Program-made: the position numbers and the translations under genes
Assembly: GCF_054482525.1 (NCBI RefSeq)
Contig: NZ_CM137006.1
DNA: 64,000 bases
Strand: one strand, 5' to 3'
Notes under the pieces: model-generated
Database searches by the model: none
What the model was told of the DNA's origin: nothing
The model's input: the letters and a program-made list of their open reading frames with translations, nothing else
Shown: in pieces, positions 10,023-15,865 of the stretch
Layout: each line of letters begins with the position of its first letter
Numbering within the stretch: position 1 is the first letter of the stretch

Positions 10023-12527
10023 ATGTCACAAACTATCGACCTGACCCTGGACGGCCTGTCCTGCGGTCACTGCGTTAAACGCGTGAAAGAAAGTCTCGAA
10101 CAGCGCCCGGATGTTGAGCAGGCGGATGTGTCTGTCACTGAAGCGCACGTTACCGGGACTGCCAGTGCAGAACAGCTGATCGAAACCATCAAACAAGCGG
10201 GTTATGACGCATCTGTAAGCCACCCAAAGGCTAAACCGCTGGCGGAGTCATCAATCCCGTCGGAAGCACTGACAGCGGTTTCTGAGGCGCTTCCGGCAGC
10301 GACCGCCGATGACGATGACAGCCAGCAGTTGCTGCTGAGCGGCATGAGCTGCGCCAGCTGTGTCACCCGCGTACAAAATGCGCTGCAAAGCGTACCGGGC
10401 GTCACTCAGGCACGGGTAAACCTGGCGGAGCGTACTGCGCTGGTGATGGGCAGTGCCTCCCCACAAGATTTAGTGCAGGCGGTGGAAAAAGCGGGCTACG
10501 GCGCGGAAGCGATTGAAGATGACGCTAAACGCCGCGAGCGCCAGCAAGAAACCGCCGTCGCTACGATGAAGCGCTTCCGCTGGCAGGCAATTGTCGCACT
10601 GGCGGTGGGTATCCCGGTGATGGTCTGGGGGATGATCGGCGATAACATGATGGTCACCGCCGACAACCGCAGCCTGTGGTTGGTTATCGGCCTGATAACC
10701 CTGGCGGTAATGGTTTTCGCCGGCGGGCATTTTTACCGCAGCGCATGGAAAAGCCTGCTGAACGGTGCAGCGACGATGGATACGCTGGTGGCGCTAGGTA
10801 CTGGCGTGGCGTGGCTCTATTCGATGAGCGTCAACCTGTGGCCGCAGTGGTTCCCGATGGAAGCGCGACATCTTTATTACGAAGCCAGCGCGATGATTAT
10901 CGGTCTGATCAATCTCGGTCATATGCTGGAAGCGCGCGCACGTCAGCGTTCTTCAAAGGCGCTGGAGAAATTACTCGATTTAACCCCACCGACGGCGCGC
11001 CTGGTAACTGACGAAGGTGAAAAAAGCGTGCCGCTGGCAGATGTTCAGCCAGGTATGTTGCTGCGCCTGACGACCGGCGACCGTGTGCCGGTAGATGGTG
11101 AGATTACTCAAGGCGAAGCGTGGCTGGATGAAGCGATGCTGACGGGCGAACCTATCCCGCAGCAAAAAGGCGAAGGCGATAGCGTCCATGCCGGGACAGT
11201 GGTACAGGACGGCAGTGTGCTGTTTCGTGCCAGTGCGGTCGGCAGCCATACTACGCTGTCACGGATCATTCGCATGGTGCGACAGGCCCAGAGCAGCAAG
11301 CCTGAAATCGGCCAACTGGCGGATAAAATCTCCGCCGTGTTTGTGCCGGTAGTGGTAGTCATTGCGCTGATCAGTGCGGCAATCTGGTATTTCTTTGGTC
11401 CGGCACCGCAGATTGTCTATACCCTGGTGATTGCCACCACGGTGCTGATTATCGCCTGTCCGTGTGCGCTGGGACTGGCGACGCCGATGTCGATTATTTC
11501 GGGCGTCGGGCGGGCGGCTGAGTTTGGCGTGCTGGTGCGGGACGCCGACGCGCTGCAACGCGCCAGTACGCTCGACACCGTGGTGTTCGATAAAACCGGG
11601 ACGCTGACCGAAGGGAAGCCGCAGGTTGTCGCAGTGAAAACATTTGCTGATGTTGATGAAGCGCAAGCATTGCGTCTGGCGGCGGCGCTGGAGCAAGGTT
11701 CCAGCCACCCGCTGGCACGGGCGATCCTCGATAAAGCAGGTGATATGCAGCTACCGCAGGTCAACGGTTTCCGCACATTGCGCGGGCTGGGTGTGAGCGG
11801 TGAAGCTGAAGGTCATGCGGTATTGCTGGGCAATCAGGCGCTGTTAAATGACCAGCAAGTTGATACTAAAGCGATTGAGGCAGATATTTCAGCTCAGGCA
11901 TCGCAAGGGGCAACGCCTGTGCTGCTGGCGGTTGACGGGAAAGCGGTAGCCCTGCTGGCTGTACGCGATCCGTTGCGTAGTGATAGCGTGGCGGCGCTGC
12001 AACGCCTGCATAAAGCGGGATATCGTCTGGTGATGCTAACCGGGGATAACCCAACCACCGCCAATGCGATCGCCAAAGAAGCAGGGATTGATGAGGTGAT
12101 AGCCGGGGTGCTACCGGACGGTAAAGCCGAAGCGATCAAACGTCTGCAAAGTGAAGGACGTCAGGTGGCAATGGTGGGCGACGGCATTAACGACGCGCCA
12201 GCGCTGGCCCAGGCGGATGTCGGTATTGCGATGGGTGGCGGCAGTGATGTTGCCATTGAAACCGCGGCGATTACCCTGATGCGCCATAGCCTGATGGGTG
12301 TTGCAGATGCGCTCGCGATTTCCCGCGCAACGCTGCGCAATATGAAGCAGAACCTGCTCGGTGCGTTTATCTACAACAGCATTGGTATTCCGGTCGCCGC
12401 CGGTATTTTGTGGCCGTTCACTGGAACACTGCTTAACCCGGTGGTTGCCGGAGCGGCAATGGCGCTCTCGTCGATTACCGTAGTGAGTAACGCCAACCGA
12501 TTGCTGCGGTTTAAACCGAAGGAATAA
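10023..12527 (+). CDS. copA: Cu(I)-exporting P-type ATPase
   Basis: 834-aa ORF with two N-terminal CxxC metal-binding domains ([16 protein letters not shown]), CPC motif ([12 protein letters not shown]) and DKTGTLT phosphorylation motif. Confidence 0.97.
10223..10229 (+). other. copA: Programmed -1 ribosomal frameshift site in copA (slippery CCCAAAG) producing the short CopA(Z) metallochaperone
   Basis: C CCA AAG at codons 68-69; -1 frame reads CCC AAA GGC TAA, terminating immediately, as described for CopA(Z). Confidence 0.8.
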
Positions 12528-12698
12528 GTACATCATTACGGATGCACTGCTTTAGGGTGGCGCATCCGTTATAGGGAAATTATTCTACGCGACCTTTTTT
12601 GCACGCATACAAACACATCAAACAAGTCCCCAACTCCATTTGCGATTTGCGCCATCCCTCCCCGCGCGCTAGCATGATATTTCACAAAGGGAGGTCGT

Positions 12699-13493
12699 AT
12701 GGATCTGTTGTACCGGGTAAAAACGCTTTGGGCCGCGCTGCGCGGTAATCATTACACCTGGCCTGCTATCGATATCTCTCTTCCCGGCAATCGCCATTTT
12801 CATCTGATTGGCAGTATTCATATGGGCAGCCACGATATGGCTCCCCTGCCCACCCGTTTGCTCAAAAAGCTCAAAAACGCCGATGCGCTGATCGTCGAGG
12901 CGGATGTTTCCACCAGCGATACGCCTTTTGCTAATTTGCCTGCCTGCGAGGCGCTGGAAGAGCGCATTAGCGAGGAGCAACTCCAAAACCTGCAGCACAT
13001 TAGCCAGGAGATGGGCATTTCTACCTCACTCTTTTCTACCCAACCGCTGTGGCAAATCGCGATGGTTCTTCAGGCGACGCAGGCACAAAAACTGGGGCTG
13101 CGGGCAGAATACGGTATCGATTACCAGCTATTGCAGGCGGCGAAGCAACAACATAAACCCGTGATTGAACTGGAAGGGGCAGAAAACCAGATTGCCATGT
13201 TGCTCCAGCTCCCTGACAACGGACTGGCGCTGCTGGACGATACGCTGACCCACTGGCACACCAATGCACGGTTGCTGCAACAAATGATGAGCTGGTGGCT
13301 GAATGCGCCGCCGCAAAATAATGAAATAACGCTGCCTAATACGTTCAGTCAATCGCTGTACGATGTGCTGATGCATCAGCGAAATCTCGCCTGGCGGGAC
13401 AAATTATGCGCCATGCCGCCGGGGCGCTATGTGGTCGCAGTCGGTGCACTACACCTGTATGGAGAAGGGAATTTGCCGCAGATGTTGCGCTAA
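12699..13493 (+). CDS. ybaP: TraB/GumN family protein YbaP
   Basis: 264-aa ORF MDLLYRVKTLWAALRGNHYTWPAIDISLPGNRHFHLIGSIHMG..., recognised as E. coli YbaP. Confidence 0.9.
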   Translation: MDLLYRVKTLWAALRGNHYTWPAIDISLPGNRHFHLIGSIHMGSHDMAPLPTRLLKKLKNADALIVEADVSTSDTPFANLPACEALEERISEEQLQNLQHISQEMGISTSLFSTQPLWQIAMVLQATQAQKLGLRAEYGIDYQLLQAAKQQHKPVIELEGAENQIAMLLQLPDNGLALLDDTLTHWHTNARLLQQMMSWWLNAPPQNNEITLPNTFSQSLYDVLMHQRNLAWRDKLCAMPPGRYVVAVGALHLYGEGNLPQMLR

Positions 13494-13575
13494 AAAAATG
13501 GCCAATATCGCTATTGGCCCGTCAAAGAGGAATTTCATTTTTTTATTATTATGCCGTCACTTTAAGCGACGGTGT
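13494..13575 (-). ncRNA. chiX: ChiX (MicM/SroB) small regulatory RNA
   Basis: Reverse complement reads ACACCGTCGCTTAAAGTGACGGCATAATAATAAAAAAATGAAATTCCTCTTTGACGGGCCAATAGCGATATTGGCCATTTTTTT, matching my recollection of ChiX, including the terminator hairpin GGCCAATAGCGATATTGGCC plus U-tract; located in the ybaP-ybaK spacer as in K-12. Confidence 0.85.
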
Positions 13576-13681
13576 AACTCGATTGTCGCTCAATCTCACC
13601 ATCCTGCCAATACTCTTAGGCAAGATGACTCTTTTTTTTGGACCGCCATCAGGCGTATGCTTGCTTCGTTTTTTTGTTTAA

Positions 13682-14176
<495 letters not shown>

Positions 14177-14212
14177 GCATTGTGCCGGATGCAAATATCC
14201 GGCACTTTCGGA

Positions 14213-15865
14213 TTACTGCCAGCTCACCTCACCTTTCGGTTCATAGACACTCACATCCAGCGGCGAGCTCTTCTGGATATACGCTTTCAGCACTTCGGCA
14301 TCAATAAAGCCGGTATTCACATAGCCCGGTTTGTTATCAAGGCGCGGATAGCCATCACCGCCGGTGGCATTGAAGTTTAATGTCGCCATACGATAAGTTT
14401 TCGCCGGATCGACCGGTTCGCCTTTGATTTTAAGGTCGTCCAGTTTGCCGCCTTTCGCCACAAAGCTAACGTTAGCAAATTGCGGGTAGGCACCTGAATC
14501 TGGCTTCATCTGCGCAACGGCGGTCAGGTAATCAATCACCTCTTTCCCGGTCATGTCGGCATACACCACCACATTGCCGAATGGCTGCACTTTCAGCACG
14601 TTTTTATAGCTGATATCGCCTGCTTCGATAGAATCACGAATTCCGCCTCCACTCATCACCGCAAAGTCAGCACCAGTGCGATCCATTTGGGCTGCCAGAA
14701 TCAACCGCCCCATATTGGTCTGTACAAAACGCACTTTGTCACGATCGCCTTCCAGACGACCATTGGTTTCGCCTATTTTCACTTCCAGCTGCGCTTTGCC
14801 TTTGTTCTGGAACGGTGATAACAGCGAGATCATTTGCTGGTTTTCAGCGATTTCAGGAGTGTAAAGCACGCGCTCGCTTTTCCCGTCTTCCCAGGTAACT
14901 TTCTTCTTCAGGTTCACCGGAATCAGCTGGTAGTTAACCATTTTCATTTCGCCATTACGAAACTCAAAATCAGCCCGTCCCACGTATTTGCCCCACTCAT
15001 GCGCCTGCACAATCCAGATGCCGTTTTGTTGATCCGGTTTGCATGGCGTACCCGGCACGTAATCGACCTGTTTTTTGTTTTCTGCCGCCATGCAGACCGG
15101 ATCTTGCGAGTGACCACCGACGATCATCGCCAGCGATCCGGCAGGCAGCGCGCGCGCCATCTCCACATCGCCCGGTGCGTTAGAGCCGTGCTCACCATTG
15201 TCGTAATGCCCCATATGGGTCGCCGCGATAATAATGTCTGGCTTTTCTGTCTGTTGCAGCTCCTGAATCACCAGCTTCGCTTCATCGGCGGGCTTACGGA
15301 ACTCAATATCGGTGAAGTTTTCTGGGTTGCCTAACTTCGCTGTGTCATCCGTCGTCAGGCCAATAACGGCAATTTTCAGATCCTGACGCTTAAACAGCGC
15401 CCATGGTTTAAACAGGCGCTCGCCGGTACTTTTCTGGTAGATATTGGCAGAAAGTAACGGGAACTTTGCCCACTTTTCCTGCTGGCGTAATACGGTGAGC
15501 GGGTTATCAAATTCATGATTACCGATTGCCATCGCATCGTAACCCACCAGATTCATGCCGCGAAAATCAGGTTCGGCATCCTGTAAGTCAGACTCGGGCA
15601 CGCCAGTGTTAATGTCGCCACCGGAAAGTAGCAGCACGCTACCGCCTTCAGCCGCAACCTCTTTGCGGATACCATCCACCAGCGTTTTTTGCGCCGCCAG
15701 ACCATATTCGCCATATTCATTGCGCCAAAAATGCCCATGATGATCATTGGTGTGCAGAACTGTAATTTTGTAGGTTTTATCCTGCTCATACGCCAGAGCA
15801 GTTTCACTCGCCAGTGTAAATGTGGTTAACAGTGCTAACGCCACGCCCCGCTGCAATAATTTCAT
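14213..15865 (-). CDS. ushA: Periplasmic 5'-nucleotidase / UDP-sugar hydrolase
   Basis: 550-aa ORF with signal peptide and metallophosphatase motifs (VLHTNDHHGHF, GNHEFD). Confidence 0.95.
   Translation of the reverse strand: MKLLQRGVALALLTTFTLASETALAYEQDKTYKITVLHTNDHHGHFWRNEYGEYGLAAQKTLVDGIRKEVAAEGGSVLLLSGGDINTGVPESDLQDAEPDFRGMNLVGYDAMAIGNHEFDNPLTVLRQQEKWAKFPLLSANIYQKSTGERLFKPWALFKRQDLKIAVIGLTTDDTAKLGNPENFTDIEFRKPADEAKLVIQELQQTEKPDIIIAATHMGHYDNGEHGSNAPGDVEMARALPAGSLAMIVGGHSQDPVCMAAENKKQVDYVPGTPCKPDQQNGIWIVQAHEWGKYVGRADFEFRNGEMKMVNYQLIPVNLKKKVTWEDGKSERVLYTPEIAENQQMISLLSPFQNKGKAQLEVKIGETNGRLEGDRDKVRFVQTNMGRLILAAQMDRTGADFAVMSGGGIRDSIEAGDISYKNVLKVQPFGNVVVYADMTGKEVIDYLTAVAQMKPDSGAYPQFANVSFVAKGGKLDDLKIKGEPVDPAKTYRMATLNFNATGGDGYPRLDNKPGYVNTGFIDAEVLKAYIQKSSPLDVSVYEPKGEVSWQ

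Follow-up and report, generated by a model that had tools for sequence, protein, structure and literature searches.

A probable deletion scar of the antitoxin gene ybaQ between copA and ybaP in Escherichia coli of phylogroup D

In the 64-kb stretch of DNA analysed here, which we call the window, the genes ybaT, glsA, copA, ybaP, ybaK and ushA follow one another in this order, and the spacer of 171 bp (12528-12698) that is bordered by copA on the left and by ybaP on the right had been singled out by an initial annotation as a place from which the gene ybaQ appeared to be missing. The copA stop at 12527, the ybaP start at 12699 and the gap between them, as given there, are found at the same coordinates in the ORF list of the window, and the 36-bp gap between ushA and ybaK, which had been described as matching K-12, is identical in a K-12-like strain. 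The spacer and its two borders contain the following features:

10023-12527, plus strand: copA, copper-exporting P-type ATPase, 834 aa, intact (ORF list; annotation in NZ_CP051753.1, 100% identical).
12538-12569, no strand: GC-rich hairpin directly after copA (RNA fold of 12520-12600: -24.4 kcal/mol, z = -3.45).
12585-12605, minus strand: ybaQ remnant, the last 6 codons and the stop (R-A-K-K-V-A-TAG), agreeing at 21/21 positions with the ybaQ 3' end of E2348/69 and of ATCC 25922.
12605-12606, no strand: deletion junction, from the alignment with E2348/69, K-12 and ATCC 25922.
12606-12619, minus strand: short remnant, of the toxin-less type, from upstream of ybaQ (CATACAAACACATC); its right limit is approximate.
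12620-12698, plus strand: apparently ancestral upstream region of ybaP, which aligns with E. albertii.
12699-13493, plus strand: ybaP, TraB/GumN family protein, 264 aa, intact (ORF list; annotation in NZ_CP051753.1).

In the ORF list of the window, nothing of the expected size of about 113 aa and carrying an HTH_3 or TIGR02607 domain lies in the copA-ybaP spacer (12528-12698); the only ORFs that overlap the spacer, of 31-49 aa, were set aside as mechanical. Both YbaQ and its cognate toxin HigB-1 are undetectable by tblastn across the whole window (best E 0.5 to 9), so that, with the toxin and the antitoxin genes both absent, the locus holds no functional type II toxin-antitoxin system. Directly downstream of ybaP, and overlapping its last bases, lies the sRNA gene sroB (13492-13575, minus strand; Rfam RF00368, 82 bits, E 2e-11), which the comparison strains have too and which was the sole match of an Rfam search with the window spacer and three alternative alleles.

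The description of ybaQ as the gene of an antitoxin-like regulator proved apt: YbaQ matches the HigA family of antitoxins (NCBIfam TIGR02607) with 105 bits against a cut-off of 47.7, and the Pfam domain HTH_3 (PF01381) with 43.6 bits. In B2-type strains ybaQ is preceded upstream by the gene of HigB-1, a HigB-like toxin (Pfam PF05015, 112 bits), which is intact (100 aa) in EcST1193 and frameshifted in ATCC 25922. Rousset et al. describe ybaQ as the antitoxin and repressor of higB-1, essential only in those B2 and F strains in which higB-1 is intact; knockdown of ybaQ derepresses higB-1, and in phylogroup D both genes are reported as lost (bioRxiv 10.1101/2020.05.25.114553). Furthermore, ybaQ has been classed as a solitary antitoxin by RASTA-Bacteria (PMC2374986), and ChIP-exo has identified YbaQ as a DNA-binding factor of the Xre family (PMC6237786). 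Operator-like inverted or direct repeats were not found at seed 6 in the regions upstream of higB-1, ybaQ and ybaP, and when the window spacer and the undeleted alleles were scanned for promoter and terminator consensus sequences, nothing exceeded shuffle expectation.

The spacer was aligned with four types of allele, which differ in what they carry between copA and ybaP:

ATCC 25922: ybaQ and a frameshifted RelE/ParE toxin gene.
K-12-like strain and MG1655: ybaQ without toxin; three REP/BIME units of ~101 bp before ybaQ.
E2348/69: ybaQ without toxin and without REP.
FDAARGOS_1280: no ybaQ; other filler.

The initial annotation had placed ybaQ of K-12 between ybaP and copA, and would have been contradicted by a K-12 spacer of ~170 bp; in fact, the two genes are 794 bp apart in K-12 MG1655, and the spacer contains ybaQ (342 bp), which converges on copA across a gap of 315 bp and diverges from ybaP across one of 137 bp. 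The allele closest to the window is that of E2348/69, from which the window spacer differs by the lack of exactly 373 bp (E2348/69 locus 1561-1933), corresponding, with this allele as the reference, to ybaQ codons 1-107 and 52 bp upstream. Up to 12605 the window has kept the final 21 nt of ybaQ, encoding the last residues of the YbaQ C-terminus (...EERAKKVA) and contiguous with the same flank as in E2348/69 and ATCC 25922; from 12606 on it continues with DNA that in E2348/69 is situated 52 bp ahead of the start codon of ybaQ, and the two breakpoints have in common a 2-bp GC microhomology. Because of the remnant, its contiguous flank and the match to E2348/69 minus 373 bp, these alignments indicate that the spacer is a true ybaQ deletion scar, produced secondarily, and not an original intergenic region.

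The size of the loss had been put at ~0.6-0.7 kb, and this holds for the difference in length from the K-12 spacer, which is 623 bp; the deletion itself accounts for 373 bp of it, the remaining 250 bp being the REP/BIME array, which is missing also from many ybaQ-bearing alleles. This array, located after copA, varies by steps of ~101 bp between ybaQ-bearing strains, with locus spans of 1222, 1323, 1424 and 1525 bp; there are three REP units in K-12, one in E. albertii and none in the window.

The initial annotation had left the choice between a clean deletion and a natural absence, and it is the 21-nt remnant at 12585-12605 that decides for the deletion. According to the second possibility, the lineage would never have had ybaQ and the spacer would be the original intergenic region, as might be expected from the distribution of the gene outside E. 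coli. In a scan of one genome per species, performed with a degenerate pattern for the C-terminus of CopA and yielding at least 120 loci from about 100 species of Enterobacterales, the synteny copA-ybaP-ybaK is nearly universal among the loci listed, and a YbaQ homologue between copA and ybaP is found, among these loci, in the E. coli representative only; no ybaQ is present at the listed sites of E. albertii (the only member of the genus beside E. coli in this sample, which extends neither to E. fergusonii nor to the cryptic clades), Salmonella enterica subsp. arizonae, Citrobacter, Enterobacter, Klebsiella, Serratia, Yersinia and others. Within E. coli, moreover, a site that looks never to have been occupied does exist. 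In E. albertii the hairpin, a single REP unit and a segment of 78 bp (CTTTCGTTTCAAAGC...CACTGAACAAG) make up the spacer. The FDAARGOS_1280-type allele, also devoid of ybaQ and present in 347 of the 5426 complete E. coli genomes (6.4%), has in its right flank a stretch that is 88% identical to this segment (E 2e-17); since the segment is common to this allele and to E. albertii, the FDAARGOS_1280-type allele looks like an unoccupied site and the window allele like a secondary loss. The same segment is absent from the module-bearing alleles and from the window, where we find 13-bp matches to its last bases only, together with sequence of the module type upstream of ybaQ and the 21 nt identical to its 3' end. 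An ancestral absence of ybaQ from the window lineage is, for these reasons, very improbable.

The flanks on which the two ybaQ-less alleles occur are closely related, and their mismatches to the window amount to 1.3% and 0.7%. The FDAARGOS_1280-type allele begins to diverge from the window exactly at the copA stop, which is TGA (1826-1828) in the former and TAA (12525-12527) in the latter, so that the alternative spacer starts at the last copA codon. In the 347 genomes the copA-ybaP spacer is filled by a GC-rich dispersed repeat of ~270 bp (FDAARGOS_1280 locus 1862-2133), absent from the window. This repeat is present in 2-8 copies (median 4), with identities of about 91-97%, in 5425 of the 5426 complete E. 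coli genomes, and in K-12 one copy lies between aqpZ and lysO (2501-2771 of the locus L008). The repeat is unannotated, folds far better than shuffled sequences (z = -4.6 on one strand and -5.1 on the other), has no Rfam match at E<0.1 and was matched to no named repeat or RNA.

For the presence or absence of ybaQ among E. coli genomes, of which the initial annotation had proposed a survey, we relied on megablast-level matches in 5426 complete genomes and on set arithmetic. DNA of ybaQ is found in 4834 of them, at 4838 places, so that almost every genome has a single place for it, and DNA of higB-1 in 1266. The undeleted E2348/69 allele used as query matches 5017 genomes, that is the 4834 with ybaQ and another 183 that match its flanks only; a 121-bp query across the junction matches 1453 genomes, namely the 1266 with higB-1 and another 187, and these 187 are covered at >=80%. 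The simplest reading of these figures is that ~183 genomes (3.4%) have the scar and no ybaQ anywhere, and that ~4 are similar to E2348/69. The alleles, with about 60 of the 5426 genomes outside the assigned classes, are distributed as follows:

higB-1 and ybaQ: 1266 genomes.
ybaQ only: 3568 genomes.
Scar, by the reading just given: ~183 genomes.
Other ybaQ-less allele (FDAARGOS_1280 type): 347 genomes.

The same counts bear on the general possibility that the short spacer is an assembly or sequencing artefact, or that ybaQ has been relocated elsewhere in the genome. An artefact is contradicted by the identical junction in ~183 independently assembled complete genomes, and a relocation by the 183 genomes (5017 minus 4834) without ybaQ DNA at any place, by the near constancy of one ybaQ place per genome and by the lack of a YbaQ-like ORF in the 64-kb window; we regard either explanation as scarcely credible. 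The junction belongs, in addition, to a coherent lineage. Over the compared regions (12200-13000 and 11800-13500) the window matches, with 100% identity, E. coli SCU-102 (NZ_CP051753.1), a strain of phylogroup D and ST973 (PMC11251922); with the phylogroup given in that source and both higB-1 and ybaQ absent, it corresponds to the loss reported for group D by Rousset et al. The same junction is present in strains named as ST69 or ST70, in SCU-313 (ST69), in SCU-105 (ST394) and in PCN033. It is identical also in HR12-1, whose copA differs from that of the window at 61 of 1825 sites (3.3%) and whose ybaP side differs by 0.7% (comparison over window positions 10700-14500); the presence of the junction beside a diverged copA implies that the scar is old enough to have been shuffled by recombination. 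The mosaic pattern of HR12-1 points to a recombination breakpoint near the scar.

A further question is whether toxin and antitoxin disappeared together or in succession. In a single-step event, higB-1 and ybaQ would have been deleted together from a higB-1-bearing allele. In favour of this, the left flank of the window, with no REP array and with GTTATAGGGAAATTATT, is of a type whose other occurrences are precisely the 1266 genomes with higB-1 and 187 others. The sequence at the right of the junction tells against it: CATACAAACACATCAAACAAGTCC matches the toxin-less alleles, with 100% identity to E2348/69 and near identity to K-12, and is unlike the promoter region that higB-1 has in ATCC 25922, while E2348/69 provides a full undeleted twin that has no toxin. 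Likewise, the segment 12606-12619 (CATACAAACACATC) matches toxin-less E2348/69 and K-12 and neither the higB-1-bearing ATCC 25922 nor the empty site of E. albertii. We therefore consider a joint deletion improbable. Since ~15 bp to the right of the junction match toxin-less alleles and not the higB-1 promoter region of ATCC 25922, the loss of the toxin appears to have preceded that of the antitoxin; these ~15 bp, together with one progenitor-like allele in the B2 strain E2348/69, suggest this order, and the progenitor-like allele could itself be a recombinant. Toxin first would also be the only order free of toxin-mediated killing, because the antitoxin is indispensable as long as the toxin is intact, as reported by Rousset et al. 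(bioRxiv 10.1101/2020.05.25.114553).

Taken together, we consider it highly probable (about 0.9) that a 373-bp deletion of ybaQ, specific to this lineage and later than the loss of higB-1 in a module acquired in the E. coli lineage, left the spacer as its scar. A higB-1/ybaQ toxin-antitoxin module would have been inserted between copA and ybaP in this lineage; in the ancestor of the window allele higB-1 would have been lost first, leaving an orphan antitoxin as in K-12, and ybaQ, having no toxin to neutralise, would have become dispensable. Illegitimate recombination or slippage between two GC dinucleotides may then have removed codons 1-107 and the 52 bp upstream, with the hairpin on the copA side and 93 bp upstream of ybaP remaining intact, and the scar would then have spread within phylogroup D (ST69, ST70, ST394, ST973 and others) by inheritance and, in part, by recombination. 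Once higB-1 was gone, the loss of ybaQ was presumably neutral.

What remained at the two sides of the junction is relevant to the expression of the neighbouring genes. The hairpin at 12538-12569 is present also in ATCC 25922, E2348/69, K-12 and E. albertii, and in the ybaQ-bearing alleles it sits between the convergent copA and ybaQ; because of this location it is probably a terminator common to both genes, which the window has kept. It was not called by a simple terminator scan. Upstream of ybaP, the GCGCGCTAGCATG box (12664-12676) and the ribosome-binding site are alignable as far as Salmonella and Citrobacter, and this conservation makes 12620-12698, in which no match to the sigma-70 consensus was found, a candidate promoter region. 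Within it, at 12638-12651, a 7-bp tandem duplication (ATTTGCG) is present in E2348/69 and HR12-1 as in the window, and absent in K-12, ATCC 25922, FDAARGOS_1280 and E. albertii. Since the hairpin and the 93 bp upstream of ybaP, with the GCGCGCTAGCATG box and the ribosome-binding site, are retained, the expression of copA and ybaP would be expected to be unchanged by the deletion.

As for the origin of the module, the listed outgroup copA-ybaP sites without ybaQ indicate that it was inserted in the lineage of E. coli. On 176 enterobacterial plasmids there are related higBA modules, with 70-75% nucleotide identity over ~90% of the module length, a resemblance that would agree with the chromosomal higB-1/ybaQ module being of mobile origin. 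The plasmid HigBA modules of Enterobacteriaceae have the same gene order as higB-1/ybaQ, a toxin of the RelE/ParE family followed by HigA; they are intact, carried on plasmids and only distantly similar, and none of this kind is present in the window. The arrangement copA-ybaP-ybaK with a short copA-ybaP spacer is kept from Escherichia to Yersinia, Serratia, Photorhabdus and Proteus, and at a few of the loci, such as L027, L088, L101 and L122, copA and ybaP are separated by 0.9-2 kb, which suggests other insertions at the same site.

The orphan antitoxin gene ybaQ of K-12 (b0483) is the gene that formerly occupied the window spacer, and its K-12 form is likewise without toxin; in K-12 the gene is complete (342 bp) and copA is followed by a REP/BIME array of three units, whereas the window keeps 21 nt and no REP array. 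The higB-1/ybaQ locus of Rousset et al. occupies the same copA-ybaP site, and the window strain, of phylogroup D and without both genes, agrees with their account. The absence of ybaQ is thus not new: it is an ordinary lineage marker of phylogroup D, already published (bioRxiv 10.1101/2020.05.25.114553). The available text of Rousset et al. gives no breakpoints, which are defined here as a 373-bp event with a 21-nt scar; further points beyond that text are the evidence for the loss of the toxin before the antitoxin, the second ybaQ-less allele resembling a never-occupied site and the evidence from outgroups against ybaQ being ancestral to Enterobacterales. These additions are incremental, and so are the allele frequencies and the placing of the module's origin in E. 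coli.

In the literature, ybaQ is treated as a conserved (core) gene of E. coli. With about even confidence, we propose instead that it is the relic of a higBA insertion confined to the E. coli lineage, all the stages of whose life cycle are still extant: the unoccupied site (347 genomes), the complete module (1266), the orphan antitoxin (3568) and the scar (~183), with both ybaQ-less states in closely related phylogroup D backgrounds. If this is true, the loss described for phylogroup D would comprise one true loss and one allele that maybe never had the module or was restored by recombination. The scar, neutral-looking and of little weight in itself, can serve as an easily read marker of a part of phylogroup D that includes the uropathogenic lineage ST69. 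It also has some value as a worked example of how reductive evolution proceeds in a chromosomal toxin-antitoxin module, where the antitoxin would be losable only after the toxin. Furthermore, ybaQ is not universal, being absent from 11% of the complete genomes, and these gaps bear both on the extra conserved function that has been claimed for the orphan antitoxin and on studies that take ybaQ for a 'core' gene or an integration landmark.
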